A stretch of 64,000 bases of DNA from Mobula hypostoma (taxonomy: Eukaryota): contig NC_086097.1 in NCBI RefSeq assembly GCF_963921235.1, forward strand, positions 63,180,001-63,244,000, read 5' to 3'. Both the position numbers and the translations under genes were made by a program. Shown here piece after piece: positions 1,670 through 37,490 of this stretch. Each line of letters begins with the position of its first letter. The stretch's first letter is position 1. The notes under the pieces are model-generated. The model saw only the letters and a list, made by a program, of their open reading frames with translations, made no database searches and was not told the origin of the DNA.

Positions 1670-2362
1670 ATGGCGATGATCAGAACCATTACAGCATTTG
1701 ATAGTGGCATTGAAGACTGGGCAACTTACATTGAGAGAGTGGAGTTATATTGTGAGGCTAATGGTGTTAATGATGAAAAGAAAGCCAGCGTCTTACTCAG
1801 TATTATGGGAGCGAAAACATACAGCCTGCTACAGAGCTTGTTAACCCCTGAAAAGCTAGCTGACAAAACGTTCAGGCAAATAGTAGACACCCTCCAACAG
1901 TATTTAAACCCCAAACCACTGGTCGTTGTTGAAAGATTTAAATTCCATATTAAACGGAATCAGAGCAAAAATGAAAGCATTTCTGAATATTGTGCTGAAT
2001 TGCGCAAAATATCAGAACATTGTCAATTTGGAGCTGGTCTATCAGACGCATTGAGGGACAGGTTAGTGTGTGGCATGCACTGTGAAACCACACAGAAGCA
2101 GCTCCTGTGTGAAAAAGACCTTACGTTCGAGAAAGTGCTAATCATCTCAACGTCAACAGTCGCACAAGGTGCTTCCGAGATACAACAAAAATCTCTGGAA
2201 CATGCCACAAATAAAACGTCACTGCACAGAAATGAAGGAAAAAAATGCTACTGTTGTGGGAACAGATCACATGACCCTGATGGTTGTTGGTTTAAAGATA
2301 AGGAATGCCGAAACTGTGGCAAACAGGGCCACACTGGCAGAGTATGCAAAGCTGGTAAATAG
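1670..2362 (+). pseudogene. Gypsy A gag with CCHC zinc knuckles
   Basis: EDWATYIERVELY, LRDRLVCGM, CYCCGNRSHDPDGC, CRNCGKQGHTGRVC; TAG at 2360-2362 is in frame with the downstream protease, so probably a nonsense mutation. Confidence 0.9.
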
Positions 2363-2419
2363 CAGGGAAAAGGCAAAATACAGAGAAACAAGAAACCCCA
2401 GAAAGGAAAATACAACAAT

Positions 2420-2872
2420 GTGCACAAAATGAAAGAAAGCAATTCTGATGAAAATGACTCAGACAAAAGTAAATTGTCTTGTCTGCAACTTCACAGCGTG
2501 AGTGAGACAGATGATCAAAGAGTAATATGGATCACTCCACAAGTGGCAGGCGTGAGACTGAAAATGGAGTTGGACACAGGCTCAGCTTTAACAGTGATCG
2601 CTGTACACGACTACAAACGACTGTTTTCTCACATATCTCTGAAACGGACTAAGCTACTGCTAAAGACTTACACAGGACAGAAAGTGTGTCCCAAAGGTAA
2701 AATTAAAGTAACAGTGACCCACGGAGACAAAACACAGCTGCTGAACCTCTATGTACTGAAAAATGGAGGACCACCATTGTTGGGACGTGAATGGCTCAGG
2801 AAAATCCAGTTGGATTGGCACACCATCAAGGCACTAGATGTGTCAACAAAGGAGGACAGCTCAACGGGGAAG
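2420..2872 (+). pseudogene. Gypsy A aspartic protease
   Basis: MELDTGSALTVI active site and GPPLLGREWL motif. Confidence 0.9.
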
Positions 2873-3535
2873 ATATCCGCAGCTCTCCACTCACCCTTTG
2901 TCGACTATTACAATGACGAAGAGGAGCTAGACAGCATTGACGATGAGGACAAACGCAGTATCCGTGGATGTGACTCCGATGAAGTTACAGAGGATGCAAG
3001 GGAGATAGATATTGCTAATAAGTAGGATGATGAAGACTACCTGGCAGTAAAAGAGCAGATGTACCAGGAGAAGTTGACGTCTCTCAAAAGACAGCTACAG
3101 CAGTTACAGGAAGGCACTTTGCAGGAGTATCAGAAAAGAATGAAGAAACTAGGTCAACAATACAAGGAAAGAATATGAAATGCAGAGCTTTTTCTGCAAC
3201 TGGAGACAGAACAAGTTGAAAGGAATTACATTAAAGAGAAGAAAGCAGCAGTGAAGGAATTTGAAGATAAAAAGATTGAGTTAGAAGAAAAAGATGACTT
3301 AGAATGAGAGGCTAACAATGGAACTCACAGGAGATTCTATGGAGGTAAAGCCAATAATAACTAGGAAACTAAGGAGGAGACCTAATGACCCTGTTCCAAT
3401 TACAGACAAAAGATGAAAACCTGCACCTGCGCAGTTAAATTACTTGTTAGCAGATGAACAGATAATGGAAGATCTGTCAACTCTCAATAAGCTTAAATCT
3501 CCGAAAAGACCAGCATCTCCATCTTCTCCTGAACA
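2873..3535 (+). pseudogene. SUDS3: Processed partial copy of Sin3-HDAC corepressor subunit SDS3, captured in Gypsy A
   Basis: Translates to DYYNDEEELDS...[34 protein letters not shown]...[31 protein letters not shown]...[15 protein letters not shown]...[13 protein letters not shown]...[35 protein letters not shown], matching vertebrate SUDS3 as recalled; no introns; several stops and an internal deletion near 3285. Confidence 0.95.
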
Positions 3536-4002
3536 ATTTCCTTGGGAAAGATCCATGAAAATTGGTCACCCCTTAAAAGCTCTTGGACAAAATCAATTCC
3601 ATTCAAACAGAACAGCTTTCGCATAAGGTAAATCTTGAACCAGTCATTTCCTCCATTGAGAATCATACACTTAATCCTTTGCAGGAATGTTTCTTTTGCA
3701 TGTACGAATTTTGAATCCTCAGCCAATGTGTCTTGTTTTGCACAAAGAAGTTGGGAAACAGCATCAAAACAGAGACAAATTCTGGCAACAAATTGTAAGG
3801 TTTCTATAGTTGTATTTTCACACTTGTGCTGAATGTGCATCTGAAGGAATCCTCCCTCTTGAATCAGGTTTCGCAATCTTTTCTTGCACTGTGCACAACT
3901 GGGATTTTTCATACATAGAATCCTCCAAACAATTCAGAAACAGTGCATAGAGTTCAGTCTCAATTCCTTGACCAAGATTTTTTTTGAACTTCAGACAGAT
4001 AG
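3529..4002 (-). pseudogene. RNF213: Processed fragment of RNF213 (mysterin) E3 region, antisense cargo, part 1
   Basis: [45 protein letters not shown]...GIDFVQELL...WIFPKEIVQ, resembling recalled RNF213 TELYMLFINCLEDS, YLQEVARIRLCLD, NDWHRVYLVRKL, WVFPKDVV; frameshifted. Confidence 0.85.
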
Positions 4003-4185
4003 TGTTGTGTTCTTTATATTCATACATGGGTTACTAATAAAGAACCGTCTTTTCTGTCTCAAATAGAACTTTTATTTAACAACAACCACAATATTTTTAC
4101 AATACCATGTTTTTCAATCTTTCTTTCATCCCTGCGCATGCTCAGAACTCTCTCCAATCATGTTCTTACACGTCATATCATCACA
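4003..4185 (-). repeat. 3' LTR of Gypsy B
   Basis: TGTTGTGTTCTTTATATTC...CATATCATCACA, similar to 11983-12170; adjacent polypurine tract on the minus strand. Confidence 0.9.
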
Positions 4186-4243
4186 TCTTCCTTTCCTTAA
4201 AAAGAAAAACAATTAGCAACATTGACCAGAGCAAATGCATAAC

Positions 4244-7200
4244 TTAACATGTCTCTATCAGTCTCTCTGGGGATTTATGAACTCGAGTAGACCTTCTAAG
4301 TGATTCACACAGTTCTTGTGTTTCATTGTTATTTCCATGTTTTGTCTGGTCTGCATTAGTTAACTGAAACTCTGAAGCTGGCCCTTTCTTGAAGTCTTTG
4401 TGATTTCTCCTTAACACTGCTCCTTCTTCTGTTTGGACTATGTATAATCTGGATTGTACTTCTTCAAGTGCTGTAGCTTTCTGTGTCCATGTGATCATTT
4501 TGTCTTGTATCCTTACTTCATCTCCTTGGTGCAGTTCAGGTAATGGACGGGAACATCTGTCAAAGTATGTTTTCTGTTTTGTTTTGTGTTCATCTTTCCA
4601 TCTTTTCACTTGTTCACCTTCCTCTGTTCTCAGAAGGCTCTCATCTATTGGCAGATTGGATCTCAAACGACGTCCCATCAAGAGCTGAGCAGGTGAAAAT
4701 CCATATTCAAGTGGAGTACTGCGATAGACTAACAAAGCTTTATAAAAATCACCTCCACTATCTTTTGCTTTGTGCATCAGTTTCTTGCTAATTCCTACCA
4801 ACTTCTCAACTAATCCATTGGACTGAGGTAAAAATGGACTAGATGTTGTATGAACAAAGCCCCATCCATGAGCAAAATGTCTCATGCATTCACCATTGAA
4901 TTGTGGACCATTGTCTGTGAAAACTTCATCAGGTACCCCTTGTCTGGAAAAAAAACTGATTTCATGCATGTAATTACATTCTCTGCTGTTGTTCTGCTCA
5001 GACCACACACTTCAGGATACAAGAGTAGTAATCCCTTATTAATAAATAATATTTGTTGTCAATTACAAAAAGTTCAACGCCTACCTTCTGATAAGGTCTC
5101 TGAGGACTATGACGTGGATGCAATGGCTCCTTAGGGTTGCTAGGTTGGTATTTAAGGCATATTTGACAAGGAGACACCGATTCTGCAATTTCTTGATTCA
5201 TCCTGGGCCAAAACATCACTTCTCGTGCCCTTCTCTTACATTTTTCAATACCTAGGTGGCCTTCATGAATTTTCCCAAGCTGTTCTTTTTGGAGACTTTT
5301 CGGAATCACAATTCTGCTACCTTTGTACAATATCCCATCCACAACAGAAAGTTCTGATCTGTGGTTCCAATATTCTTGTACTTCTGAGGTACAGTCATGC
5401 TTATTATCTGCCCATCCATCCATCACCACTTGTATTACCTGACTGAGAATTTTGTTCTTCTCAAGATGCAACAGTTCCAACTTTTCGGGAGTAACAGATA
5501 CAGTTTCTATGACCATATCAATAAATACCTGAACATCAACAGCATCCCTGTGACTGTCTTTTGTTGTTGGATCCACAGCTCTGGAAAGTGTGTCAGCCAT
5601 GTACATGAATTTTCCAGGTGCGTATGACACATGCAACGTATATCTTAGTAATTTGATCATCATTTGCTGAATTCGCAAAGGACAGTCACTTAACGGTTTG
5701 TGAAACAATGCAATCAGAGGCTTGTGATCAGTTTCAACATCAATAGATTGACCTGACACAAACTGATGAAATCTCTCACAAGCAAACACAATGCTGAGCA
5801 ATTCTTTTTCAATTTGGGCATACCCTGTTTCTGGATCAGATAATGAATGAGATGCATATGCCACAGGTAGCCAATCCTGATCATGTTTTTGGAGTAATAC
5901 TGCCCCTAAGCCTGCTTGAGATGCATCACACGAGATTTTGATGGGTCTCTCAGCATCACAGAATTTCAACACAGATTCTTTAGTGAGTACTTTCTTGAAA
6001 TTTTGCCTTGCCTTCTCCTGTCCATGGTTCCAGCTCCATTCATTTCTCTTTTCTGTTAGCTGCCTCAATGGAGCGAGCTGTTCCGAGAGATCGGGTATAA
6101 ACTTTCCCATGTAGTTGGCCATTCCCATAAACCTCTGAACATCCTTTTCACATTGCAGTCTTGGCATGTTCTCAATAGCAGAAACCTTCAATGGATCAGG
6201 ACGCACACCCTCTTTGCTGATGATATCACCCACAAATGTAAGTTCAGTCACTCCTAGCTGACATTTGTCTTTATTCAACTTCAGGTTTGCCTTGCGTGTT
6301 GCCTCAAAGACTTGTCTGAGCCTGGCATTATGCTCTTGTTTAGATGATGCCCAAACAATAATCTCATCCATGGATGTATCTACGCCCTCAATGTGCTCAT
6401 ATAACATGTGAGTGGTTTATGGTACACTTCAGGAGCTGATGCAATTCCAAACGGAAGCCAAAGAAAACAGTATCTGGCAAAAGGAGTGTTAAAGGTACAC
6501 AACTTTGAACTCAGTTCATCTAAGTTGCTAGAATTCAGTGGATGCATCTAATTTACTAAAGCACTTTGCATTAGCAAACTGTGACATAATTTCTTCACGA
6601 GCAGGCAATTTGAAATGCTCTCGTTTAATGGCTCGATTCAAGTCTCTTGGATCTAAGCAAATCCTCAGTTTTCCATTTTTCTTATCAACTATGACAAGTG
6701 AATTGACCCATTCAGACGATTCATCAATTTTTTTTATAACTCCTAGCCATTCCGTTCTGTCAAGCTCTGTTTTCAGTTGATGACGTAATGCAAAAAGCAC
6801 TTTTCTACTTGGATGACTACAGTTGGCACTGTGCTATCAATTTTAATCATGTGCTCTCCTGGAAGACAACCAAGCCCTTTGAACAAGTCCTCAGACTTTT
6901 TCATCAAGTCACTGTATTCTGACTCTGTGTCACTGTCCAGGACCAAATCTCTTTTCACCAAATTCAGTCTCTCTCAGGCCGATAAACCCAGTATTGACTG
7001 TACATTCTTTGGCACCACCACAAATGAAAGCGTGTGCACAATAGTTTTGTGTGATACTTTTGCCACACATGTTCCTTTAACTGGAAAGTCTGCACCTGAA
7101 TACCCAGTCACTTTTATATTTGTATTATGTAACTTTGGTCTTGGCTTTAACGCATTAAACTCAGATTCTGCAAGAACATTTACTTGTGCTCCAGTATCAA

Positions 7201-7935
7201 GTTTAAACAGAATATTGTTTTGTTTCACTTGCAATGGAATAGTCCAGTCATTCTTACTTCGTTTTCACAAAGCACATCTATATAAAATTCCTCCAGTTCA
7301 TTTTCAAGTGCTGCATTTATTTGTTTTATTTTCTTTCTACTTCTGCAACAGCGTGAAAAATGATTACTCTTACTGCAGTCGTTGCACATTTTCCCATAAG
7401 CTAGACACTGTTTTGGCCGATGCTGCTCCCCACAATGATCACATAGCTTTTTTCCTCTCAGATGACGTCTTGCTCTCTGTCGGTTTTGTTGTTGTTTTAT
7501 TATTTTTTCTAATATGTTCACGCTTCCTCACAGCATCTACATTGCAGTTCTCAATGAAAAGTTCTTTAGCCTGTGATGTCACAGTTTCCAAAACTTTGCA
7601 GAGCATCAAAGCTTTTTCCATGTCTAAGTCTTGTTCTCTTAACAATCTTTCTCTCAGCGTATTATCCAGAATGCCACAAACAATTCTGTCTTTAATGAGA
7701 GAGTCTGTCAGTTCTCCAAACTCGCATGTTTTACTCTGGTGTCTCAACTCAGTAACATATGGATCAATAGTTTCACCAGCTCTCTGCATACATGTAAAAA
7801 ATCTATGCCGCTCGTATGTCACATTACGCTTCAGTGTACAAAATGCTTCAAGTTTGTCCATTATCGAATATAACTTTAAATTATATTCAAAAATAAAATG
7901 ATTATGTACCTCAATTGCATCGTCACCTATTATGT
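4244..7935 (-). pseudogene. Gypsy B gag (distal part), protease, RT, RNase H and integrase; frameshifted
   Basis: YERHRFF, LIKDRIVCGI, FKLDTGAQVNV, LRICLDPRDLN, CDASQAGLGAVL, YAQIEKELL, IHEGHLGIEKC, TDNGPQF, PQSNGLVE; PR-RT-RH-IN order. Confidence 0.92.
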
Positions 7936-10900
7936 AACATAGAAACATCGAAAATAGGTGCAGGTGTAGGCCATTCGGCCCTTCAAGCCTGCACCACCAT
8001 TCAGTATGATCATGGCTGAGCGATCTGTTTAGCCACAAGGGCCATATCTAACTCCCCCTTAAATATGGCCAATGAACTGGCCTCAACTATTTCCTGTGGC
8101 AGAGAATTCCACAGATTCACCACTCTCTGTGTGAAGAAGTTTTCCCTAATCTCGGTCCTAAAAGGCTTCCCCTTTATCCTCAAACTGTGACCCCTCGTTC
8201 TGGATTTCCCCAACATCGGGAACAATCTTCCTGCATCTAGCCTGCCCAATCCCTTTAGGATTTTATACGTTTCAATAAGATCCCCCCTCAATCTTCTAAA
8301 TTCCAACGAGTATAAGCCTAATTCATCCAGTCTTTCATCATATGAAAGTCCTGCTATCCCAGGAATCAATCTGGTGAACCTTCTTTGTACTCCCTCTATG
8401 GCAAGGATGTCTTTCCTCAGATTAGGGGACCAAACCTGCACACAATACTCCAGATGTGGTCTCACCAAGGCCTTGTACAACTGCAGTAGTTCCTCCCTGC
8501 TCCGGTACTCGAATCCTCTTGCTATAAATGCCAGCATACCATGCGCCTTTTTCACCGCCTGCTGTATCTGCATGCCCACTTTCAATGACTGGTGTATAAT
8601 GACACCCAGGTCTCGTTGCACCTCCCCTTTTCCTAATCGGCCACCATTCAGATAATAATCTGTTTTCCTGTTTTTGCCACCAAAGTGGATAACTTCACAT
8701 TTATCCACATTAAATTGTATCTGCCATGAATTTGCCCACTCACCTAACCTCTACAAGTCACCCTGCATCCTCTTAGCATCCTCCTCACAGCTAACACTGC
8801 CGCCCAGCTTTGTATCATCCACAAACTTGGAGATGCTGCATTTAATTCCCTCATCCAAGTCATTAATATATATTGTAAACAACTGGGGTCCCAGCACTGA
8901 GCCTTGCGGTACCCCACTAGTCACTGCCTGCCATTCTGAAAAGGTCCCGTTTATTCCCACTCTTTGGTTCCTGTCTGCCAACCAATTCTTTATCCACATC
9001 AATACCTTACCCCCAATACCGTGTGCTTTAAGTTTGCACACTAATCTCCTGTGTGGGACCTTGTCAAAAGCCTCTTGAAAATCCAAATATACCACATCAA
9101 CTGGTTCTCCCCTATCCACTCTGCTAGGTACATCCTCAAAAAATTCTGTGAGATTCGTCAGACATGATTTTCCTTTCACAAATCCATGCTGACTTTGTCC
9201 GATCATTTCACCGCTTTCCAAATGTGCTGTTATCACATCTTTGATAACTGACTCTAGCAGTTTCCCCACCACTGATGTTAGGCTAACCGGTCTATAATTC
9301 CCTGGTTTCTCTCTCCTTCCTTTTTAAAAAAGTGGGGTTACATTAGCCACCCTCCAATCCTCAGGAATTAGTCCAGAATCTAAAGAGTTTTAAAAAATTA
9401 TCAATAACGCATCCACTATTTCTTGGGCTACTTCCTTAAGCACTCTGGGATGCAGACCATCTGGCCCTGGGGATTTATCTGCCTTTAATCCCTTCAATTT
9501 ACCTAACACCACTTCCCTACTAACATGTATTTCCCTCAGTTCCTCCATCTTACTGGACCTTCTGTCCCCTACTATTTCCGGAAGATTATTTATGTCCTCC
9601 TTAGTGAAGACAGAACCAAAGTAATTATTCAATTGGTCTCATGTCCTTGCTCCCCATAATCAATTCACCTGTTTCTGTCTGTAGGGGACCTACATTTGCC
9701 TTAACCAATCTTTTTCTTTTCACATATCTATAAAAGCTATTACAGTCAGTTTTTATGTTCCCTGCCAGTTTTCTCTCATAATCTTTTTTCCCCTTCCTAA
9801 TTAAGACCTTTGCCCTCCTCTGCTGAACTCTGAATTTCTTCCAGTCCTCAAGTGAGCCACATTTTCTGGCTAATTTGTATGCTTCTTCTTTGGAATTGAT
9901 ACTATCCCTAATTTCTCTTGTCAGCCACGGGTGCACTACCTTCCTTGATTTATTCTTTTGCCAAACTGGGATGAACAATTGTTGTAGTTCATCCATGCGA
10001 TCTTTAAATGCTTGCCATTGCATATCCACCATCAACCCTTTAAGTGTCATTTGCCAGTCTATCTTAGCTAATTCACGTCTCATACCTTCAAAGTTACCCT
10101 TCTTTAAGTTCAGAACCTTTGTTTCTGAATTAACTATGTCACTCTCCATCTTAATGAAGAATTCCACCATATTATGGTCACTCTTACCCAAGGGGCCTCT
10201 CACGACAAGATCGCTAATTAACCCTTCCTCATTGATCAATATCCAGTCTAGAATAGCCTGCTCTCTAGTTGGTTCCTCTACATGTTGGTTCAAAAAACCA
10301 TCCCACATACATTCCAAGAAATCCTCCTCCTCAGCACCCTTATCAATTTGGTTCACCCAATCTACATGTAGATTGAAGTCACCCATTATAACTGCTGTTC
10401 CTTTATTGCACACATTACTAATTTCCTGTTTAATACCATCCCCAACCTCACTACTACTGTTAGGTGGCCTGTACACAACTCCCACCAGCGTTTTCTGCCC
10501 CTTAGTGTTATGCAGCTCTAACCTTATCGATTCCACATCCTCCCGGCTTATGTCCTTCCTTTCTATTGCGTTAATCTCCTCTCTAACCAGCAACACCACC
10601 CCACCTCCTTTTCTTTCATGTCTATCCCTCCTGAATATTGAATATCCCTGAATGTTGAGCTCCCATCCTTGGTCACCCTGGAGCCACGTCTCTGTGATCC
10701 CAACTATATCATATTCATTAATAACAATCTGCACTTTTAATTCATCCACCTTGTTACGAATGCTCCTTGCATTGACACACAAAGCCTTCAGGCGCGCTTT
10801 TACAACTCTCTTAGCCCTTATACAATTATGTTGAAAAGTGGCCCTTTTTGATGCTTGCCCTGGATTTGTCGGCCTGCCACTTTTACTTTTCACCTTACTA

Positions 10901-11718
10901 CTTTTTGCTTCTACCCTCATTTTACAACCCTCTGTCTCTCTGCACTGGTTCCCATCCCCCTTTGTGAACTAACCTCCTCTCGCCTAGCCTCTTTAATTTG
11001 ATTCCCACCCCCCAACCATTCTAGTTTAAAGTCACCTCAGTAGCTCTCGCTAACCTCCCTGCCAGGATATTGGTCCCCCTGCGATTCAAGTGTAACCCGT
11101 CCTTTTTGTACAGGTCACACCTGCGCCAAAAGAGATCCCAATGATCCAAAAACTTGAATCCCTGCCCCCTGCTCCAATCCCTCAGCCACACATTTATCCT
11201 CCCCCTCATTGCATTCCTACTCTCACTGTCGCATGGCACAGGCAGTAATCCCGAGATTACTACCTTTGCGGTCCTTTTTCTCAACTCCCTTCCTAGCTCC
11301 CTATATTCTCCTTTCAGGACCTCTTCCCTTTTCCTACCTATGTCATTGGTACCTATATGTACCACGACCTCTGGCTCCTCACCCTCCCACTTCAGGATAT
11401 CTTGGACACGTTCAGAAATATCCCGGACCCTGGCACCAGGGAGGCAAACTACCATCCGGGTCTCTGGACTGCGTCCACAGAATCGCCTATCTGACCCCCT
11501 TACTATTGAGTCCCCTATTACAACTGCCCTCCTCTTCCTTTCCCTACCCTTCTGAGCTACAGGGCCGGACTCTGTGCCGGAGGCACGGCCACTGTCGCTT
11601 CCCCCAGGTAAGCTGTCCCCCCCAACAGTACTCAAACAGGAGTACCTATTGTCAAGAGGCACAGCCACCGGGGTACTCTCTAGTACCTGACTCTTCCCCT
11701 TCTCCCTCCTACCCTCCT
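7936..11718 (-). mobile_element. CR1 LINE (5'-truncated within ORF1) inserted in Gypsy B gag
   Basis: ORF1 SGNH esterase (VIGDSIVRG, HIGTND, DGLHLN; 11021-11668); ORF2 APE endonuclease (9625-10920) and RT in frameshifted pieces to 8010; TTTCTATG-type tail; gag frame KAALLLH|IIGDDA is split by it. Confidence 0.93.
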
Positions 11719-11868
11719 GTGGAGTAGAAGTGCAGCTTTTGTTTTCTCTTGCTTTCGATCTGCATCAATCGCCAGTAAATACAATTCAAAATGTTGCTTA
11801 AATTTTCTCCAGTTCTCAGCTACATTCCCAGACAATTGAAGTGTCGATGGAGGCTGCAAACCTTCCAT
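11719..11868 (-). pseudogene. Gypsy B gag N-terminus
   Basis: MEGLQPPSTLQLSGNVAENWRKFKQHFELYLLA...KAALLLH. Confidence 0.85.
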
Positions 11869-11982
11869 TTGTAAAACTGTTAGCAAACACCAAAACAATT
11901 TGAACTCTTTTTTTCAGAAAGTTATTTCCGATTCTCCTGTGTTAGGAAACGTACTATTCTTCTAAATTGAATTCTGACACCA

Positions 11983-12170
11983 TGTTATGTTCTTTATATT
12001 CATACGTACCATGAGTTACTAATAAAGAACCATCTTCTCTGTCTCAAATAGAACTTTTATTTAACAACAACCACAACGGTTTTACAATACCATGTTTCTC
12101 GATCTTTCTATCATCCCTGCACATGCTCAGAACTCTCTCCAATCACGTTCTTATATGTCATATCACCACA
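11983..12170 (-). repeat. 5' LTR of Gypsy B
   Basis: Similar to 4003-4185; followed on the minus strand by PBS TGGTGTCAGAA. Confidence 0.9.
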
Positions 12171-12236
12171 GACAGCACTACAGGTAATCCTTAACATCAC
12201 AAAACTGTACTTTAACAGCAGTTTAAGAACAATGGA
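12171..12236 (-). pseudogene. RNF213: RNF213 antisense cargo, part 2 (continues across Gypsy B)
   Basis: SIVLKLLLKYSF then, after a 1-nt frameshift, DVKDYL; recalled RNF213 has SVILKLLLKYSFHDVKDYI immediately before TELYMLFINCLEDS. Confidence 0.8.
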
Positions 12237-12823
12237 GCCACAAGTGAGAGAGCGACAGCAGCCACACCCCAGTCAACAGCTTCGACAAGACAGCTAAACC
12301 AGGTGAGGGTAGCTGACGGGTCTCAAACCCTTGGTGAGATAGGGAGATGTCTATCCCAGCATGTGAAGACACACAATTCCGGCAGATTGAGCGAACGAGA
12401 CCAATGGAAGGTCCAACGGTCAAGAAAGCGGTTTCTGCAAGCGTCGTGGAACGTGTTGAGCACAGGACACAGAAGACGTCCTGGTCATCCACTGCACCTG
12501 GTCCCATCTCCAGCCATCTCAACTCTGACTTGCCACTGCATCCAGACAAGAATTGGGAAGAGAGAGTGAGACTGACGCTGCGCAACTCTCCCTCACATAA
12601 ATCCAAATCGTGCGCTAGTCTCGACACTATCAATGGTGTCGAGGTCTTCATCGATGATGACAATGGACGAACATGGAAGAACAATGGAATGAACAACAGG
12701 ATTTCGATCAACAGCTTCTTCAAACGGTGAAAGATTACTGGTAAAGACAGCAGATCACCAACCACTTCTTTTGAAAACCAAAGCTACGAAAAATGCATCA
12801 CACCTCTTGTGAAATATGACTAA
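12236..12823 (+). pseudogene. Unidentified captured coding fragment (C-terminal ~195 codons)
   Basis: One frame interrupted only by four TGA codons (12245, 12314, 12335, 12728), consistent with CGA>TGA decay; ends ...TTSFENQSYEKCITPLVKYD-TAA; no TE motif recognised. Confidence 0.55.
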
Positions 12824-12879
12824 TTTTGCTACAGCTTCACTTATTTCTTCTGTTACCACTGGTACATAACCATCATCTA

Positions 12880-12930
12880 GAGAAGTATGGCACAGTGGGC
12901 AAAGTCCCCCTCAGAGACTTGAGTTATAAA
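12880..12930 (+). pseudogene. Probable remnant C-terminus of Gypsy A integrase
   Basis: SPPQRLEL-stop resembles the RxRKPPxRLxL end of fish Gypsy integrases. Confidence 0.5.
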
Positions 12931-13028
12931 TGGGTCTTAGACCAAAAGTAAGAGAAAGGCTTGTTATAATTTGGTATTATTATGTTATTTTGTTATAATT
13001 TGATACTATTAAGTTACTAATGTTACAG

Positions 13029-13948
13029 TGTTACATACCTCATGGATATCTTGTGACTGTCTTATGACCATGATGTAATTGAGTAGCTGATGAGCATGAT
13101 GTAATGGTGTTTTGGAGGTCATCTGATGTAATGTTCCCACCGATGTGAGGTCACGTGATGACATGTCCACCACGGGTATAAAGGGGAAACCCCTGGTGAC
13201 GCAGTTAGTTTTCAGTTAGATCGTCAGTCAGGTACTCCGCTATGCTGCGTATTCGTCCCATGATGCAGTTTAGTTTTAAAACGGAGTTTTACTTTCTATT
13301 GTAAGGTACAGAAGTGTTGGGCTGGTAGTTTCACCAATAGCTGCCAGCTTTGTTGGTGTACCTTTTCAGTAGTATTGGAGAGTGAAGACATTACTAAGGT
13401 ACGGAACCGAAGGGAGTTGAGTAAAGCTGATATCGTTCGGTGGTATTGGAGAGGATCGACCATTATTGAATCTTTGTTCAAGAAAGAGTAATCTGCATGA
13501 GATAACCTCTGCTAAAGCAGAAAAGGTTGTGCAGTGTCTATTCTACAGAGGAAGAGGTCAGTTCCTTTAAACCGTTTTATTTCCGTCGTTGTGAATCCTG
13601 CGGACAAGGCAGGTTCCGGCTGGGATCAGCAGTAACGTCAAGTCTTCGAGGAATTCTTTACTTCAGGAAAGTCTCTCCTAATTGACTGTATAAATCTCTT
13701 GGACTTTCAAATTTACCATTCTAAGAACTGTTTGTTCCAATTTACCACTTTAATACTGTGTTCACATTTACCGCTTTAAGAACTAGTACTGAGTTTGGCA
13801 GTTTGTTAAATGGCCGCATAGCAGTTTACTTCCGGTTAAGGTTTTCGTTTGTTTATCTTTTTACTAATGTTGAGCAGAGTTTAGTAAATGTTTATTTGTT
13901 TATAAAACCTGGCTCATTTCTATATTCATTGTTGCCGGTCACGTGATA
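13029..13948 (+). mobile_element. Probable solo LTR of an unrelated family in the Gypsy A 3' region
   Basis: Starts TGTTAC, TATA-like GGGTATAAAG near 13175, ends ATAAAACC...CACGTGATA; no convincing TSD. Confidence 0.5.
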
Positions 13949-14040
13949 CTATGTAAATAAATGGTAGGCGTTTGTATGTTAGGGGTAAACATATTTGTTT
14001 ACCATAGTGTTCCAGTAAAAAAAACAGTTGATACACTATT

Positions 14041-14058
14041 AAAATAAAAGGGGAGGAG
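14041..14058 (+). promoter_or_regulatory. Polypurine tract of Gypsy A
   Basis: AAAATAAAAGGGGAGGAG immediately before the 3' LTR. Confidence 0.85.
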
Positions 14059-14281
14059 TGTATTGTATAGCTACTGTATAATATGGGACTATTTTATGTT
14101 GTAGGGACATGTCGTTGCATATGCTATTAGGCACGTACTGAGCATGCGCTATTAGGCACGTATTGATCTGTACGCGTGTGTTCAGTTTGGTTTCAGTCAG
14201 TAAAGAACCCTGTTAATATAGCTCCCATCTCCAGCATTTTTATTTATAGCTTTGTTGTGTAACCTGGTCACATACACAACA
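14059..14281 (+). repeat. 3' LTR of Gypsy A
   Basis: TGTATTGTATAGCTACTG...CACATACACAACA, 223 bp. Confidence 0.93.
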
Positions 14282-14760
14282 AGGCACAATTGAGAGCATC
14301 CTGACTGGCTACATCACTGCCCGGTATGAGAACTGTACTTCCCTCAATCACAGGATTCTGCAGAGAGTGGTGCAGACAGCCCAGCGCATCTGTAGATGTG
14401 AACTTCCCACTACTCAGGACATTTACAAAGACAGGTGTATAAAAAGGGCCCAAAGGATCATTGAAGACCCGAGCCACCCCAACCACAAATTGATCCAGCT
14501 GCTACCATCTGGGAAACAGTACCCGCAGCATAAAAGCCAGGGCCAACAGGCTCCGGGACAGCTTCTTCCACCAGGCCATCATACTGCTTAACTCAAGCTG
14601 ACACAACTGTATTTCTATGTTATATTGACTATCTGTTGTACATACCATTTATTATAAATTACTATAAATTGCACATTGCACATTTAGCTGGAGACGTAAC
14701 GTAAAGATTTTTACTCCTCATGTATGTGAAGGACGAGAATAATAAAGTCAATTCAATTCA
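14282..14760 (+). mobile_element. Rex1/Babar-like LINE 3' end (target of Gypsy A)
   Basis: GTIESILTG...VQTAQRICRCELP...HPNHKLIQLLPSG; AATAAA and (CAATT)n tail. Confidence 0.8.
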
Positions 14761-19304: not shown

Positions 19305-22300
19305 CTATAAAAAACCCCTGTACCCCTTAAAAACGCTAAAAATACCCGGACGTGCTCTCTCACCCATGCCCAGCAACCCTTTTAATGTGAATTCCTGCAT
19401 CCCCAACTCCCTTAATTTATTTCTCATCATCTCTGTCTGTATCCCATACTTCCTGCAACACAAAACTACATGTTCTACTGACTCCTCTTCCTGACATTCC
19501 TCACACAATCCTGTCTGGTGTTTCCCTATTATTTTCAATGTTTTGTTTAATGCACAATGCCCCAGCCTTAACCTAGTCCGCACAATTTCCTCTCTTCTGT
19601 TTCCATTACCTACCCTAGTAACTGCAACACTCTTTTGTATTTGATATAAATGCCTCCCTTTCCCCTCCCTGTCCCATCTTTCTTGCCACATTCGGTTAAT
19701 TTTTTTCCCAGATTACACACTTAACCTCTGCTTTACTGATACTGATGTGCATTTCCACATTTTCTTTCTTTAACGCCCTCTTTGCCAACTCATCCACCCT
19801 CTCATTCCCCTTCACCCCTACATGTGCTGGAACCCATAGAAATTTTACCTGACCTCCCTGATTTGCAATTCTTGTAACTAACTGAAGGACTTCATAAAGT
19901 ACATCTTGCCGACTGTTTGTGTGAAAAGACCTTAAACTTGCTAGAACTGAGGATGAATCTGAACATATCAATGCTTTGGATGGTCTGGCTTTCTGCACCC
20001 ATTGCAATGCAACCAACACTGCCAGCATCTCCACTGTAAACATCCCTAACTTATTAGATGTTCTTCTGCTGATTCCAATTTCTTTTGCTGGTATTACCAC
20101 CTCAAACCCTGTCACTCCTGTTTCAGGTTCCTTCGCACCATCCGTATAAATGTGAGTATAATCACTATACTTTTCCATCACATGACAGTTAAATGCATTT
20201 ACCAAATCTGTTTTATATCTTTCTTTCCTTTTTACCTCTAACAAATGTCAGTCTATGTCAGGCCATACAAGCTTCCATGGAGCTACAACCGGATAAACTA
20301 CTGAAGGACTTATCCTCAGATCAAATACTCCACATTCTTTCACAATATCATTCCCTACCCGACTAAAGGTATCCCTCTGAAACCTCCCATTTTCCCAGCA
20401 CTCCTGCAACACTCCTTTAGTAGGGTGAGAATCATTGTGCCCCTGCAAGTTAGCCCAGTAGTTTGCCATCAGTTGCATCCTTCTTAGTTCCAAAGGCATT
20501 ATTCCCATTTCTACCTGTAGTGCTGACACTGGTGACGTTTTAAAAGCCCCACTGCACACTCTCAAGGCCTGAGCCTGAATCACATCCAGTTTCCTTATAA
20601 GAGACCTAGCTGCTGATCCATATACTATATTTCCATAATCCAATACAGATCTCACTAAAGTCACATACATTCTCTTCAAAGCTGAACAACTTGCTCCCCA
20701 TTCCCTACCAGTCAAACATCTCATCACATTTATTACTTTTTTACATTTCTCCTCAACTTTCCTGATATGGTCTACCCATGTTAATTGTAAATCAAATATA
20801 ACTCCCAGAAATTTAAATGATGCAACCCTTTCTAATTCAACCCCATACATTCTTAACTTCTTCCCTACCTCAACCCTTTTCCTGGTAAAAAATACAGTTT
20901 GAGTTTTATCTACTGAAAATCTACATCCCCAATCATAACCCCACTCCACCACTTCATCAATTGCTTCTTGTAGTTTCCTGATTATATGGTCCATGTTCCT
21001 GCCTCTTTTCCACAAGGCCCCATCATCCGCAAACAGTGACCTACCTATATCCACTGGTACCTTTGTGAAGACATCATAGATCATAATGATGAAAAGTAAC
21101 GGGCTAATCACACTACCTTGAGGTGTGCCATTTTCCACTATGTACTGTTTTGATAATTCTGATCCAATCCGAACTTGAATTTTTCTACCAAACAAAAAAT
21201 CTTTAATCCAATTAAAAACTCTCCCACCAACCCCCATCTTGTGCAGTTTAATTAATAATCCTTCCTTCCACATCATATCATAGGCTTTTTCAATGTCAAA
21301 GAACACTGCCACTACTGACTCTCTATTTGCCTGGGCCTTCCTTATTTCAGTCTCTAACATAATCACTGAGTCCATGGAATTCCTTCCCTTTCTAAAACCA
21401 CTCTGATAACTTGCCAGCATTCCCCTTTTCTCAAGCTCATATGATAACCTTTCTGTTATCATCCTTTCCATTATCTTACATACACTTGATGTTAATGCAA
21501 TTGGTCTGTAGCTAGTGGGTTTTGACAGATCCTTGCCAGGCTTCCTTATTGGAATTACTATTGCTTCTTTCCATGCACTTGGTAATCTTCCCTCCTCCCA
21601 CACTCTGTTATAAAAATGCAGCAACTTCAAGAGCGCTCCTTCTCCTAGATTTTTTAGCATCACAGAGCATATCAGATCTTTCCCTGGGGAGGTTGGTCTC
21701 GATCTCTTTATTGCTCTCACCATTTCTGCTAATGTAAATGGATCATCAATTACATCATCTGTTCCTTCCCTCCTGCTTAACACACCTGGGTGTTGGCTCA
21801 TTATTCTTTCCCTTCTTCTTCTCCCTTCTTCAGACAAATTTTCTGAACTGTGTATCAGTACAAATGACTTGGCCATGACCTCAGCCTTATCCCTACTGGA
21901 GACTGCAGTTTCCTCCTCAGATATCATTACTGGATATTCCCATTCCCTTCTATCTCCTCCCATCCTCTTAATCATTCCCCATATCTCTCCCACAGGTGTT
22001 GTTTTTCCTACCTTGTCGCAAAAACTCCTCCAACTTGCCCTTTTAGCTTGACGTATAGTTCTTCTCACCACTGCCTGTGCTTTCTTATATTGAACCAAAT
22101 GCTGCATATTATGGGTTCTTTTAACTAGCCTGAATGCTCTATTTCTGTTTTTTACAGCCTGACAACATTCCTCTGTCCACCATGGTACCAGTTTTCTATT
22201 CATCCTATTTTTACTCCTAGGTATAGATCCTTCTGCTGCCATGATAATTGCTGAAGGCACCTGACTGTTTAATTCATCTACATTTCCAGAAATATCAATC

Positions 22301-23051
22301 TTTGTCAACCCTTCTTCACTCAACTTCTGGAACTTACCCCAATCAGCTTTTTCAAACACCCACTTTGGGGTTCCGCCACCTGGTCTTACTTCAACTCTTT
22401 CACCCACTGAACACAAAACTGGGTAGTGATCACTGCCTACTGTTGAAGCAGTCCAAACTCCCCAGTTACTAATGCCAGCCAAGGTATTAGACACTAACGT
22501 AATATCTAACACTGACTCAGTTCCTGTTGTTATATCTATCCTTGTGCCGCTACCATCATTCATACACACCAAATCCCTTTCTTCCATCAAATCTTCAATT
22601 ACCTTTCCATTTGGATCTGTAATCTGATCCCCCCATATTGTGCTATGAGCATTGAAATCTGCACACCACACTACTTTATGTCTGTTTTGTCCTTGTATCT
22701 TTAATAGGCTGTCCAAATCCAACCTTTTACATGGATTGTAGTAGTTAATTATAACCACTCCCTCCCTCTCTCCCACACTTCCAACACTATGTATTCCTGA
22801 TCATCTCCTTTTTCCAGTACCCTATATGGTATACCTTGCTTGATTAACATAGCACAACCCCCTCCTCCCCCTAGATTTCTATCTTTCCTTATCATTGTAT
22901 ACCCATATACCACAAAGTCTAAAGTTGGTTTCAACCAAGTTTCCTGAATACACACTACATCCGGTTTTACAACCATTTCTTTAATAAAGTGCTTGAATTC
23001 CTGGCTATTGGCCAGTAAGCTCCTTGCATTCCATTGTAAAAGAATCACCAT
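19305..23051 (-). pseudogene. Nimb ORF2: APE endonuclease, RT, RNase H
   Basis: QWNARSL, DFNAH, GSDHYP, YRPIALTS, GTPQGSVISP, LFADD, IYTDGAK, WVPAHVGVKGNERVDELAK; frameshifts near 22780 and 19700; in-frame stop at 20248. Confidence 0.92.
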
Positions 23052-24376: not shown

Positions 24377-26943
24377 GCATCAAGCAAAACACAGCCAGCT
24401 TCCAGTCCAGCCAACTCAGCCACTCCCTTCTCAGACGCCGGATTGCCAGGCCACTCCTGAACGGAGCACGACTCCCGACCAGCCTTTAGATATTGCTCCC
24501 ATCTTAAACTGTTTAAAAGCAATTTCTTTGCCAGGTGCTGACGTTATCATTTAATTTAATTGGCCTCCTGACAGCTTGGTTGCTGAATAAGTATGATTGC
24601 AGTAATATTCACCTGTGAGAAGTAGCCAATTAAAAGTTCAAAGCCCAACAAAGGTTTCTCCTCAACCAACATTAGGTTTTAATTTCCAATCAGGAATCAG
24701 CAGTACGAACTGCACCAGTGAAATGGTGCATTTACACACTCATTCATGTGATGTGCAGAGAATCTGCATGAGTCATGGATTTACAGCAGTGCACACTAAT
24801 TCAAGATTTACAGTGGGTTTGCATCAGTTGTGGATTCTTAGAGTTATAGAGTACTACAGCACAGAAACAGGTCCTTCGGCCCATCAAGTCCACGCTGAAC
24901 TGTTATTCCCAATGGCCAGCACCTGGACCATAGCATCCATACCTCTCCCATCCACGTACTTGTCCAAATTTCACTTAAATGTTAAAATCAAACTCAGATC
25001 CACCACTTCCGATGGCAGCTTGTTCCACACTCTCGCCACCCTCTGAGTGAAGAAGTTCACCTTCAGGTTCCGTTTCAATAGGTACAGAGGAGAAGTCGGG
25101 CTAAGTTTTTTACTTAGAGAGTGGTGAGTATGTGGAATGAGCTTCCAGGAACGGTGGCGGAGGCGGAAACGATAGGGTCTTTTAAGAGGCTCCTGGACAA
25201 GTACATGGAGTTCAGTAAAATAGAGCGCTGTGGGCAACTCTAGGTAATTTCTAATGTAAGGACATGCTTGGCACAACTTTGTGGGCCAAAGGGTCTGTGT
25301 TGTGCTGTAGGTTTTCTATGTTTCTAGGTCTATGCTTCTATGTTTCTAAATATTTCACCTTGCACCCTTAACCTATGACTTCTAGTCCTAGTCTCACCCA
25401 ACCTCAGTGAAAAAAGCGTGCTTTCATTTAGCCTATTGATATCCTCATAATTTTGTGTACCTCTATCAATTCTCTCCTCATTCTCCTGTGCTCTAGGAAT
25501 GAAGTCCTAACTTATTCAACCTTTCCCTATAACTCAACTCTTCAAGTGCCAGCAACATCCTTGTAAAATTTCTCTGAACTGTTTCAATCTTATTGATATT
25601 TTTCCTGCAGATAGGTGACCAGAATTACACACTATACTCCAAATTAAGCCTCACTGGCGTCTTATACAACCTCAACATAACTTCCCAACTCCTGTATTTA
25701 GTATTTTGATTTATGAGGACCTTTGTGTCAAAAGCTGTCTTTATGATGCTGTCTACCTGTGATGCCACTTTGATGAAATGATGGATCTGTATTCCCAGAT
25801 CCTTCTGTTCTACCACATCATCAGTGCCCTATTGCTCCCCATGTAAGGCCTACCCTGGTTTGTCCTCTCTCATACCTATCTGCATTAAATTCCATCTGGC
25901 AGTTTTCAGCCCATTTTTTCAGCTGGTCCAAATCCCACTGCAAACATTGACAGCCTACCTCAGTGTCCACTATGCCCCCAAACTTGGTTTACAGTTTACT
26001 ACATTATCATCCAGACCATCGATATAGATAACAACCAACCATCAATATAGATAACAAACAACTGACGCAGCACTAATCCCTGCAGCACATCTCTAGTTAC
26101 GGGCCTCCAGTCAAAGAGGCAACCTTCTACTACCACTCTCAGCCCTCTCATGTGAAGACGATTTGCTGCCTCTTCCTCAATGCCAAGCAGCTGAACTACC
26201 TTGACCAGCGTTCCATGAGGAACTTTGTCAAAGGCTTTGCTGAAATTTGTCAAAGGCCTTGCTGAAGACCATGTGAACAATAGCCACTGACTTTCCTTCA
26301 TCAATTGGTAACCTTCTCAATAAACTTTTTAAAATTGGTTAGACATGACTTACCATGCACAAAGCCATGTTGACTATCCCTAATCAGGCCCTCACTATCC
26401 AAGTACTTATATTTTGTTCCTTAGAATACTTTCCAGTTATTTATCCACTACTGACTTGGGCTCACTGGCCTATAATTTCCCAACTTAATCTTAAAGTCTT
26501 TATTAAGCAAAGGAACAACATTAGCTATCCTCCAGACATCCTCATCTGTGGCTAAGGATGTATTATATGCTTCTACCAGGGCCACTACAATTTCTTCCTA
26601 GCCTCCCACAAGGTCTGAGGGGACACCCTGCAGATTTATCAACCCTAATTTGCCTGAAGACAGCAAGCACCTCATCCGCTATAATCCACATACTGTCCAT
26701 GGCCACTGATGTTTTGCCTCAATTCAATAGACCTTGTGTTCTACAAATGCTTTTCCAAGTGAATACAGATGCACAAAATCCATTTCAGATCTCCCCCATC
26801 TGTTTCGGTTCCATACATAGATAACCACGCTGATATTCAAGAGGCAAACAACAGGAATTCTGCAGATGCTGGAAATTCAAGCAACACACATCAAAGTTGC
26901 TGGTGAATGCAGCAGGCCAGGCAGCATCTCTAGGAAGAGGTAC

Positions 26944-26979
26944 AGTCGACGTTTCAGGCCGAGACCCTTCGTCAGGACT
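26944..26979 (-). ncRNA. Minimal type-I hammerhead ribozyme motif (Penelope terminal repeat)
   Basis: Reverse complement AGTC-CTGACGA-AGGgtctcggCCT-GAAA-CGTC-GACT. Confidence 0.7.
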
Positions 26980-27400
26980 AACTGAAGGAAGAGTTAGTAA
27001 GAGATTTGAAAGTGGGAGGGGGAAGGGGAGATCCAAAATGACAGGAGAAGACAGGAGGGGGAGGGATGGAGCCAAGAGCTGGACAGGTGATTGGCAAAGG
27101 GGATATGAGAGGATCATGGGACAGGAGGCCTGGGGAGAAAGACAAGTGGGGGGGGACCCAGAGGATGGGCAAGGGGTATAGTCATAGTCCCTCTGACTAT
27201 ACCCCTTGCCCATCCTCTGGTCCCCCCCCCGCCCTTGGCTTTCTCCCCAGACCTTCTGTCCCATGATCCTCTCCTATCCCCTTTGCCAATCACCTGTCCA
27301 GCTCTTGGCTCCATCCCTCCCCCTCCTGTTTTCTCCTATCATTTTGGATCTCCCCCTCCCCTTCCCACTTTCAAATCTCTTACTAACTCTTCCTTCAGTT

Positions 27401-27436
27401 AGTCCTGACGAAGGGTCTCGGCCTGAAACGTCGACT
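27401..27436 (+). ncRNA. Minimal type-I hammerhead ribozyme motif (Penelope terminal repeat)
   Basis: AGTC-CTGACGA-AGGgtctcggCCT-GAAA-CGTC-GACT: CUGANGA and GAAA core, stem I AGTC/GACT, stem II AGG/CCT. Confidence 0.7.
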
Positions 27437-27978
27437 GTACCTCTTCTTAGAGATGCTGCCTGGCCTGCTGCATTCACCAGCAACTTTGATGTGAGTTGCT
27501 TGATGTTCAAGAGGACTAATTTTATCCCTTGGTATCATTTTGCTCTTACTATATATCTAGAAGCCCTTGGGATTCTCCTTCACTTTGTTGCCAGAGCAAC
27601 CTCGTGCCTTTTTCTCGGCCTCCTGACTTCCCTCCTAAAGCAGGGTTCATGGCCGGGTCTGCTTTAGTAGCAAACTCAGAGCAAGTTCATATTGTCTGGA
27701 ACTTGAAACAAGTCCCCTTTGGTCTGGAATATATGACAGGTGATAGGGTCATGACAGGGCCTTGACACCTGTTTCATATTAGTTCAGGATATAGAATAGG
27801 TCAGCATTATTCCTGGATGGTCTGGGGCATTAATCAATGATTTACTGTGGGTCTCTATTAGGCCAGGAAGTAGCATGGTTCCATAATAGTTCAGGGTCTG
27901 GACTTGCACCATTTCTGTATTAGCTTTGGATTTACATTGGATTTGTGTTATTCTGGCACTTGAAGTGGATCTACATTT

Positions 27979-35472: not shown

Positions 35473-37490
35473 TCAATGAAGAATTTCTCTGGTTCCAAGC
35501 AAACCAAGTGCTGCAGCATTTCACCACACCAATTACACCATCAAGCTATTCAAGCTCTGCAAACAAGAAATCTCGGAGTAACACAAAACAGAACACTGGA
35601 AGAATTTAGTGGTCAAATTGATAAATGCTTTAAGCTGATTATTTAGCTTGAGAACTTGCACCAGGACCACTTGACCCACTGACTTCTTCCAGCTTTCTGT
35701 TTTTTGTTCCAGATTCCAATATCTGCAAACTCTTCTGTCTCCAAGTCTCAAAGCTTCCTGACATTTAACAGCCCAAGAGAAAGTAAGACAATTTCAGGAA
35801 ACAGCATTTCTTCCAAACTTGTGGTCACCTCATGGAGATGTGGTACTGAAATACTGAAGACCTCATCTCTCACATTAGTCGATGTTATTGCTGCCTAGTC
35901 CAAATTGAATGATACTGACAGGCTTCAATCAGAAATCAAAAGGTGAACCTGGTTAGTTAAACATATAAAATCCATGTCTTTATTGCCACTTTCAAATATG
36001 ATTTAATACATGATTTCTATTAATATATGTTCTATTCTAAAATGTAATTTTATATACGTATTTAAATGTGTTATGTATTCAATCATAGAGAATTAATAAC
36101 TACGTGTAAAAAAGCTTTGAAAGACAGTAAAATTTATGCATATGTATTCAAGCTAACATTATAATCTACAGTATGCTGTACTTATTAGTTGAATTCACAA
36201 ATAACAGCTTCATTTTTAGAATCCTTTGAATCTTCAATCACTAGCGAGATCTTTTTTCAGGTTTGATTTATTTTCCACATTACTTAATCAAAATGTGGAC
36301 TGTATGCTGAAAATCAGATTTATATATTCATTACTCTGAGGAAAAACTAATTCTGCACCTAGGCAATCTATCCAATGACATGGTTTCAAATTCCAATTGA
36401 CCAATCATATGTAAAGTCTCATTCAAGTTTCTTTTGTGTGATGAAAGCAAGTAGTTATTTCAGCTTCCTTCAGAACATAGAAACTTCAGTGTAAAAGTAA
36501 ACCTGACCTTCTTCTGGGAACCTTAATTTATTGTATTTAAAAACAGAGCATGCTATGTTATCAAGTAGATAGGATTAAAATAACATATGATAACCTATAA
36601 TCAATATCTCTGAATCTGAATTAACGTAACTAATGATGGATTCTCATTAATTGAATGCCCAGTCAATAGTTTTTAACACTCAATGCTTTTGACTTCAAAC
36701 ATTTCAAATTAATACCTCTTCTTTTTTTCCTTATTTTTTAACACAATGTGTGTAGGTTTGATGTGTACTATCTTGACAAGTTTCAGTAATGGGTAAGTCT
36801 TGCTGCGGTAAGTTGATATACACATTTCAAAAAATACTGTTATCAGTTTTGATGGCTCTATGCACAAACGGAAGAATTTTAGTATTTTTGCTTTTTTTAA
36901 TTACTTTCCCTAAGGTACACAGCACTGGTAATGACAGGAAGACATGTTTAATCCAAGTTCCCTTTATCACTTGACATGTCAGGTCAATACAGAGGGCATC
37001 TAAGAATCAGATTGGTTGCCGTTAGGCTGGAGTCACAGATAAAAGCATACTACATGATAACGCCAGTTTGCATTCGGTAAATAATGGTTACAATCATTTT
37101 CAGTTTTTCTGTACTCTAAATACACGTCTTAAGATTTTATTTCTGGTTACCAGGTTCCTGTGGATTGTTCCAGGCTGTTTAGTGGGAAGCACTTGCCTCT
37201 GTGGGCTAGGATTTCTGATACTCCATTCCAATATCCTTACCAAACCAAACCATTTGTGTCAGGTAACACTTCAATCCTTTGTGCAAACTTATCAAAGTGA
37301 ACAGGTCCAGGAACAGTTACGACATCTCAATCATCGTTTGTATTTGCACAGTTTGTTGGCTTCTGCACTCTGGTAGAATGCCCCAGTTGGGAGGTCTTTC
37401 ATTGATTCCGTTATAGTTATGATTCCATAGATTTATTGAGTAAGCCTGCAAGAAAATGAATCTCAGGGTTGTTTATGGTAACATATATGC

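Follow-up and report, generated by a model that had tools for sequence, protein, structure and literature searches.

Introduction

Acutely transforming retroviruses that make gag-onc fusions are defective and helper-dependent, and they carry a host coding sequence in frame with Gag, replacing pol. The element described here shares with them a helper-dependent, defective genome and a Gag-fused host coding sequence in pol's place, but it has no envelope or infection, its cargo is a corepressor subunit, and it gives no sign of selection on the fusion. LTR-mediated retrocopies, whose switch points have a median microsimilarity of 6 bp in the relevant part of Tan et al. (2016, PMC5131818), are also similar: internal ORFs are replaced by spliced mRNA while both LTRs are kept, there is microsimilarity at the switch (7 nt here), further copying rounds and second cargo genes occur, and the orientation is often sense and in frame. 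Compared with the retrocopies in that part of PMC5131818, the present case differs in its numbers (~500 copies, over half of the loci sampled from the family) and in having a whole CDS behind Gag-protease, three 3' variants and a presence in several species.

The nearest vertebrate cases are the endogenous retroviral captures of crocodilians, but these are small. In CrocERV29 (KIT-ligand) and CrocERV31 (nectin3), as presented in part of PMC4299795, a host mRNA likewise resides in a vertebrate LTR element that is old, occurs in several species and has in-frame deletions common to its copies. Those elements are retroviruses with 6-9 copies, in which the cargo is a separate ORF or replaces env and is reported to be under purifying selection, whereas here the carrier is a Gypsy element, pol has been replaced, and no selection was detected. 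Drosophila telomeric elements with nxf2, aub and piwi are comparable in that part of a silencing gene rides on a high-copy transposon; in the portion of PMC13534243 that deals with them, they are non-LTR elements with repeated captures, a small-RNA mechanism and accelerated host evolution, in contrast to the one capture and unaccelerated host gene found here.

Here we describe the structure, splicing, junctions, copy numbers, subtypes and decay of a Gypsy family in which SUDS3 mRNA stands in place of pol. We consider it probable that this family was made by template switching and spread on a helper's enzymes, with SUDS3 as a passenger.

Results and discussion

A Gypsy element with SUDS3 mRNA in place of pol

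In the window, by which we mean the whole 64,000-nt stretch of Mobula hypostoma DNA that was analysed, a Gypsy retrotransposon spans from one LTR (1081-1304) to another (14059-14281), both on the plus strand, and SUDS3 mRNA takes the place of its RT-RNase H-integrase region. The 5' LTR has TG...CA ends and differs from the 3' LTR by 9.0% mismatch over 223 aligned bases, and the pair is bounded by a target-site duplication (unstranded), GGGCA at 1076-1080 on the left and AGGCA at 14282-14286 on the right. A primer-binding-site-like motif (1308-1318, plus), which we take to be of the tRNA-Ser type, lies 5' of gag, as it does in 24 of 57 loci; no tRNA genes were found in the window. Gag and its linker (1670-2539, plus) contain two CCHC knuckles (2246-2347) and a single stop (2360), and are followed in the same frame by an aspartyl protease and the start of the protease-RT linker (2540-2853, plus; DTG at 2573-2581). 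Next comes a microhomology of 7 nt, at which the linker of the Gypsy element matches the 5' UTR of host SUDS3 (2854-2860, plus; this copy has a single substitution of its own there). The frame then continues through 12 further nt of that 5' UTR (2861-2872, plus) into the spliced SUDS3 cargo (2873-3541, plus), which corresponds to host coding nt 1 to ~690-698, that is, exons 1-9 and the start of exon 10. This cargo has stops at 3023 and 3176, a family-wide 24-nt deletion, and a private 5-nt frameshift near 3285.

A previous sequence-only reading of this locus had placed gag, protease and SUDS3 in one frame, and we confirm that a single frame opens with the gag ATG (1670), includes the protease DTG and reaches SUDS3 at 2873, broken by stops at 2360, 3023 and 3176. 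The codon at 2420, where it put the protease start, is no more than a Met within the linker between Gag and protease, and the Pfam protease stretch lies at 2540-2800. Its suggestion that the ATA at 2873 was once the SUDS3 ATG agrees with the Met codon found at the SUDS3 start in 48/68 copies. The join to SUDS3 is in frame, as it had proposed, but falls 12 nt upstream of the start codon, in the host 5' UTR, and not at the start codon itself. Similarly, the deletion that it noted near 3285 does shift the frame, but the gap relative to the host is 29 nt, of which 24 are in frame and family-wide and 5 are private.

The 3' part of the element has been expanded by later insertions. A second cargo, an RNF213-like coding sequence in antisense (3542-4002, minus; matched part 3544-3900), defines subtype A (see below) and is followed by a later-inserted, unrelated Gypsy element (4003-12170, minus; LTRs at ~4003-4185 and 11983-12170; flanks GATAG/GACAG) that is itself broken by a LINE-like repeat at ~7930-11700. 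The remainder of the subtype A insert (12171-12905, plus) is present as 12171-12236 and 12677-12905 with a 440-nt insertion between the halves. Gypsy sequence resumes at 12906-13020 (plus) with the final bases of the integrase region and the 3' leader, and the 3' leader continues to the polypurine tract at 13947-14058 (plus) after a 926-nt insertion that other copies lack. The 13-kb span of the element therefore results from later insertions, namely the minus-strand Gypsy element with its LINE-like repeat and the two smaller ones; relatives without them are ~3-4 kb.

The gag-protease is 58% identical to an intact Gypsy polyprotein over residues 1-404 (58-64% across intact single-ORF polyproteins), and the likeness stops ~10 codons past the protease. 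The closest polyproteins contain the gag, protease, RT, RNase H and integrase Pfam families in that order within one ORF, with no envelope, which is the Ty3/Gypsy arrangement. The Pfam protease match in the window is below its cut-off (22.1 vs 28.2); the Pfam Sds3 match is above its own (31.2 vs 25.4 bits), and ray SDS3 proteins share 91% identity with the cargo of this copy. Gag has two CCHC arrays, as in the Mag clade of Ty3/Gypsy, a pair that is not diagnostic of that clade because Micropia/Mdg3, according to part of PMC2577118, have the same trait.

Several other repeats lie in the window. The 926-nt insertion (13021-13946) starts with TG, contains TATA-like and poly(A)-signal-like words, and is possibly a solo LTR of another family. 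The Gypsy insert at 4003-12170 has ~30% identity over RT-integrase to relatives of the SUDS3-bearing family, and the LINE-like repeat inside it recurs with 95% identity at 40025-41634 and 62998-64000. An inverted repeat (287 nt, 69-nt spacer) occupies 26847-27511, with a related repeat at 35126-35473. The longest stop-free frame in the window, 850 codons at 20251-22800 (minus), resembles a LINE endonuclease-RT ORF.

The cargo is a spliced mRNA with three 3' ends

The host SUDS3 gene (G000:C78:8439639-8380638, minus) has 12 exons and one AT-AC intron. The cargo is its spliced mRNA: all 12 host exons are joined with no intron, identity to the host mRNA is 93-96%, and the copies start 12 nt 5' of the SUDS3 ATG. 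The AT-AC ends belong to host intron 7 (G000:C78:8398854-8395736), presumably of the minor-spliceosome type, and this intron is precisely absent from the cargo.

Among 68 copies there are three 3' ends, which we call subtypes A (n=14, ending at coding nt ~690-698), B (n=30, nt 1073) and C (n=24, nt 1302); the window copy is of subtype A. In subtypes B and C the SUDS3 coding sequence is entire and some of the 3' UTR follows it, and 54/68 copies extend past the subtype A end, all but one (which stops at nt 934) to the end of the CDS or beyond. An ancestor without the SUDS3 C-terminus, as the sequence-only reading had imagined, is at odds with these data: loss of the C-terminus is a later feature of subtype A only (14/68), and the founder had it. 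Subtype A retains the dimerisation helix (with a gap) and the Sin3-binding segment, has lost the capped Tudor domain, and continues into antisense RNF213-like sequence (E 8e-11 to RNF213 structures). The RNF213 piece has at least 150 matches; being antisense, it cannot code in this orientation, yet it has been amplified. The RNF213 parent gene was not found among the matches listed, which are filled by element copies. For many copies the match covers just a portion of this insert of subtype A (3542-4002, 12171-12236 and 12677-12905), suggesting sub-variants.

The in-frame 24-nt coiled-coil deletion is present in 105/105 copies covering the site. It is flanked by 6-nt direct repeats that stand 24 nt apart, so its length is fixed without selection. 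Alternative splicing as the source of the deletion is ruled out by its position inside exon 6. In the protein, the deletion falls in the dimerisation helix seen in 4ZQA (residues 80-163) but does not reach residues 195-219, the segment whose structure is 2N2H. The same start-codon change is found in 10/68 copies and the host allele at cargo codon 43 in 16/67, in all three subtypes; the patterns at codons 1 and 43 point to recombination among subtypes or mutation hot spots.

Junctions argue for template switching and not for processed pseudogenes

At the 5' join, GGGCAGC is common to RT-bearing copies and the host 5' UTR. A further 7-mer is shared at the 3' join of subtype B, where the sequence returns to the last part of the integrase region, and at its own 3' join subtype C has only 2-3 nt shared; the chance of at least 7 shared bases at a random join is 0.0007. 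Both LTRs and the target-site duplication are present. The ~2.7 kb of pol have been replaced and not interrupted, with RT-RNase H-integrase absent and the sequence resuming at the integrase end, and neither poly(A) nor a duplication was found at the cargo ends. These features, together with the microhomologies at the joins and the single 5' join and deletion common to the copies, oppose a LINE-made processed pseudogene landing in a Gypsy element, or many independent pseudogenes. Such an origin would accord with the plentiful LINE-like repeats in the window and with the section of a preprint (10.64898/2026.06.26.734816) that ties retrocopy abundance to non-LTR elements and ranks SUDS3 as a top-five parent in cartilaginous fishes, but the junction structure refutes it, and we regard it as extremely improbable.

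The same 5' join and the same 24-nt deletion indicate that all copies have one origin. Subtype B has element sequence absent from C, and C has host sequence absent from B; at least one further recombination is therefore needed. Every feature of LTR-mediated retrocopies that we tested was found, namely splicing, replaced ORFs, microsimilarity, LTRs with a target-site duplication, and amplification with a matching helper. Under the template-switching model that we favour, reverse transcriptase would have switched template once, at the 7-nt 5' microhomology, the frame being fixed by chance. The shortened element, having kept LTRs, primer site, polypurine tract, Gag and protease, could then have been packaged and copied in trans, spreading on the enzymes of RT-bearing relatives. 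Later switches would have produced the three 3' ends and the RNF213 cargo and would have swapped gag-protease repeatedly between carriers and helpers. The founder's product would have been a Gag-protease-SDS3 polyprotein with its SDS3 part under no detectable selection.

Carriers and their RT-bearing relatives amplified together

A DNA search gave 663 candidates, of which the 40 scored were all at least 91% alike, and a protein search yielded 1706. Across the genome we counted 143 instances of the exact junction motif and 89 of the matching RT-linker motif, against 0 for each in the reversed control. To sample the family without regard to cargo, we took 60 loci, the first of 150 protease-end matches, chosen regardless of the sequence 3' of the protease: 33 continue into SUDS3 (29/33 in the same register), 26 into RT, and 1 belongs to another family, with no cargo besides SUDS3 at the post-protease position. 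Scaling by the motif match rates (9/33 SUDS3 loci, 8/26 RT loci) gives estimated totals of ~500 SUDS3-bearing copies (rough figure 520) and ~290 RT-bearing copies. We collected 111 distinct SUDS3-bearing copies, a sample that leans to less decayed copies because most were chosen by likeness to the window or the host protein. Left out before the counts were L038 and L073 (duplicates), L053 (without the protease end) and L071-L072; copies with gag-protease coverage <90% (15/68 SUDS3 copies, 4/20 RT copies), cargo nt 385-445 (the deletion edge) and codons 230-232 (the subtype A edge) were also excluded.

The RT-bearing family has the same LTRs and gag-protease as the SUDS3 copies. On a star-like gag-protease tree the two kinds are intermixed, only 2 sites set them apart, and distances are 9.7% among SUDS3 copies, 9.9% among RT copies and 10.2% between them; of 28 gag-protease variants that are common among SUDS3 copies, 23 are present in RT copies as well. 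Mean LTR divergence is 10.5% for 27 SUDS3 copies and 8.9% for 10 RT copies, with one outlier in each. Because of the intermixed tree, the common variants and the similar LTR divergence, capture and amplification likely took place within the helper family's own burst, and amplification probably relied on the helper's enzymes.

The numbers bear on whether the cargo conferred an advantage in cis, a short host-like RNA being more stable, less recognised or more easily copied, with the protein irrelevant. Carriers are at least as numerous as helpers, a frame left open through the cargo would presumably spare the RNA a long untranslated tail, and non-autonomous LTR elements often out-proliferate autonomous ones, according to part of Tan et al. 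(2016, PMC5131818). The 33:26 excess of SUDS3 over RT loci is, however, not significant (95% interval 42-69%), and a cis advantage is not separable from a plain passenger, since any short non-autonomous derivative could match it; we judge it very unlikely.

Contigs that cross the protease-SUDS3 join were found in runs of organisms A, B and D, and organism E has the subtype A join as a loose contig end. The junction-spanning contigs in runs X1, X2 and X7 may be DNA; none of the 24 runs is on record as RNA, and for 18 of them the RNA status is a guess. Organism F shares five host SUDS3 changes with the host gene that are absent from the family, and the capture therefore likely predates that split. 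Named 'SDS3-like' proteins of two Mobula species have the same 8-residue gap as the cargo. None of the 120 of 290 matches listed (lengths 295-942) is an annotated protein with both protease and Sds3 domains. One X7 contig (aligned over L012:1507-2124 and L015:1641-2180) runs from the Gypsy linker into SUDS3 but has host-type alleles and lacks the 24-nt deletion. It is either a chimera of the assembly or an earlier form of the element that exists in organism D.

The founder's frame was likely open, and all copies examined have decayed

The junction register is kept in 65/68 copies, no stop or frameshift is common to most copies, and no gag-protease frameshift occurs in more than 2 of 53. The commonest stops are at CpG-decay sites (22/68 and 23/68 in the cargo, 26/69 in the protease), and the stops seen here at 2360 and 3023 are found in 4/69 and 3/67 copies, respectively. 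On these per-copy counts the founder's Gag-protease-SUDS3 frame was likely open, because the register has been kept in 65/68 and the breaks are private or at recurrent CpG-decay sites, in agreement with the ancestral Gag-PR-SDS3 frame that the sequence-only reading had put forward. Its caution that a join is in frame by chance one time in three holds but counts only once, because the register stems from a single event. It had also called the window copy dead, as the stops and frameshift bear out. The cargo is unbroken in 7/68 copies, and 0/53 are unbroken from the gag start to the cargo end, so the comparison of copies proposed in that reading speaks for an open founder, with no stop or frameshift shared by most copies, but finds none intact now. 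Rare differences are neutral in all regions (pN/pS 0.92-1.03).

No selection is detectable on the cargo

Most copies differ from the host gene by fifteen substitutions; 12 of these are synonymous and 3 nonsynonymous, for a naive family-vs-host dN/dS of 0.09 (3N:12S, p=0.0001). We rejected strong selection as the meaning of this ratio after polarising the changes with host SUDS3 contigs of other species (three organisms, runs X7, X9 and X11), among the differences listed, including all 30 of X9. Seven synonymous changes are assigned to the host lineage; the element lineage receives 3 nonsynonymous and 2 synonymous ones, and 3 could be placed either way. The element-lineage dN/dS is 0.56 (3N:2S, p=0.49), and when all three ambiguous changes are given to the element the count becomes 3N:5S (dN/dS 0.22, p=0.066 vs neutral). 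The host's private synonymous divergence of 4.7% leads one to expect ~11 host changes, and 7-10 are observed.

Variants shared among copies (those in at least 6) give a similar picture. In the cargo, shared variants are 26N:10S against 471:124 for singletons (p=0.30), which gives no sign of constraint, although chance recurrence dilutes this test and its power is low with few informative changes. The gag-protease control gives 31N:25S for shared variants against 550:164 (p=0.0006), indicating constraint that may reflect the helper pool rather than the SUDS3 carriers. All five cargo variants at ≥10% are nonsynonymous, one of them at the start codon, and the three family-wide replacements hit residues identical in ray and bowfin SDS3. 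The apparent neutrality of the cargo is an absence of evidence at modest power, not proof.

These data weigh on the Sin3/HDAC decoy proposed in the sequence-only reading. In a fuller version of it, the protease would free SDS3, made 1:1 with Gag, to enter Sin3/HDAC complexes and weaken silencing; with its shortened coiled coil and intact predicted Sin3-binding segment, such a protein would help the family spread. The join lies in the linker ~10 codons past the protease end, the founder frame was likely open, the deletion is in the dimerisation helix (4ZQA) with the 2N2H segment spared, carrier copies exceed helper copies, and repression of endogenous retroviruses is SIN3A-dependent in mouse cells (in part of PMC9410877; for Sds3 roles, see part of PMC8800102). 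Yet no constraint is seen on the cargo, the variants at ≥10% are all nonsynonymous, and the family-wide replacements alter residues that ray and bowfin share. Subtype A was amplified without the C-terminal domain, 53/53 copies examined end to end are broken, and a diffusible product would presumably aid helpers as much as carriers. The decoy is thus not supported, the cargo being without detectable purifying selection once host drift is removed, and we think it quite unlikely. The naive cargo dN/dS of 0.09 might have favoured it; the polarised data, although few of the changes are informative, are what that reading had expected of a neutral capture.

Effects at the RNA level, which depend on sequence likeness and not on an open frame, fit neutral protein evolution. 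By analogy with the Drosophila telomeric captures, small RNAs against the element might also target host SUDS3 mRNA and lower germline Sin3/HDAC function, and the copies are 93-96% identical to the host mRNA, the range of host targeting in flies in part of PMC13534243. The host gene, however, is not accelerated (7-10 synonymous changes vs ~11 expected), and the host protein equals the named Mobula and Pristis proteins, isoform differences aside, leaving this proposal just as doubtful as the decoy. The broader idea, that a Gypsy element made polyprotein-released, dimerisation-altered SDS3 or cargo small RNAs into its anti-silencing factor, that the carrier outnumbered its helper, and that the burst was too short for a dN/dS signal, also seems unlikely.

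We return to the passenger reading as the probable one. Several points weigh against it: the power of the cargo tests is low, SUDS3 copies exceed RT copies both in the 60-locus sample (33 vs 26, with no other cargo at this position) and by exact junctions (143 vs 89), the founder carried no fixed stop or frameshift, the gag-protease control may reflect the helper pool, and the part that SIN3A takes in repression of LTR elements (endogenous retroviruses) in mouse stem cells, in the relevant portion of PMC9410877, makes SUDS3 a plausible target.

Implications for SUDS3 retrocopies in cartilaginous fishes

One section of the preprint 10.64898/2026.06.26.734816 counts SUDS3 with the genes most often retrocopied in cartilaginous fishes and reads such lists as transcription bias plus selective filtering. 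We found no description of a SUDS3-bearing element in the open-access literature; preprint supplements may list its copies. Our data suggest that the SUDS3 retrocopy count here reflects transposon amplification of a single capture. They also expose a trap, in that comparing the copies with the present host gene gives a dN/dS of 0.09 that is mostly host drift. If the decoy were true, a captured corepressor would have been turned against host silencing. As it stands, the family belongs to a kind already known, LTR-mediated gene capture, but as a vertebrate case it is unusually large, clean and amplified. One event would account for hundreds of SUDS3 'pseudogenes' and for several ray 'SDS3-like' database entries, which we trace to the capture because they have the same 8-residue gap.
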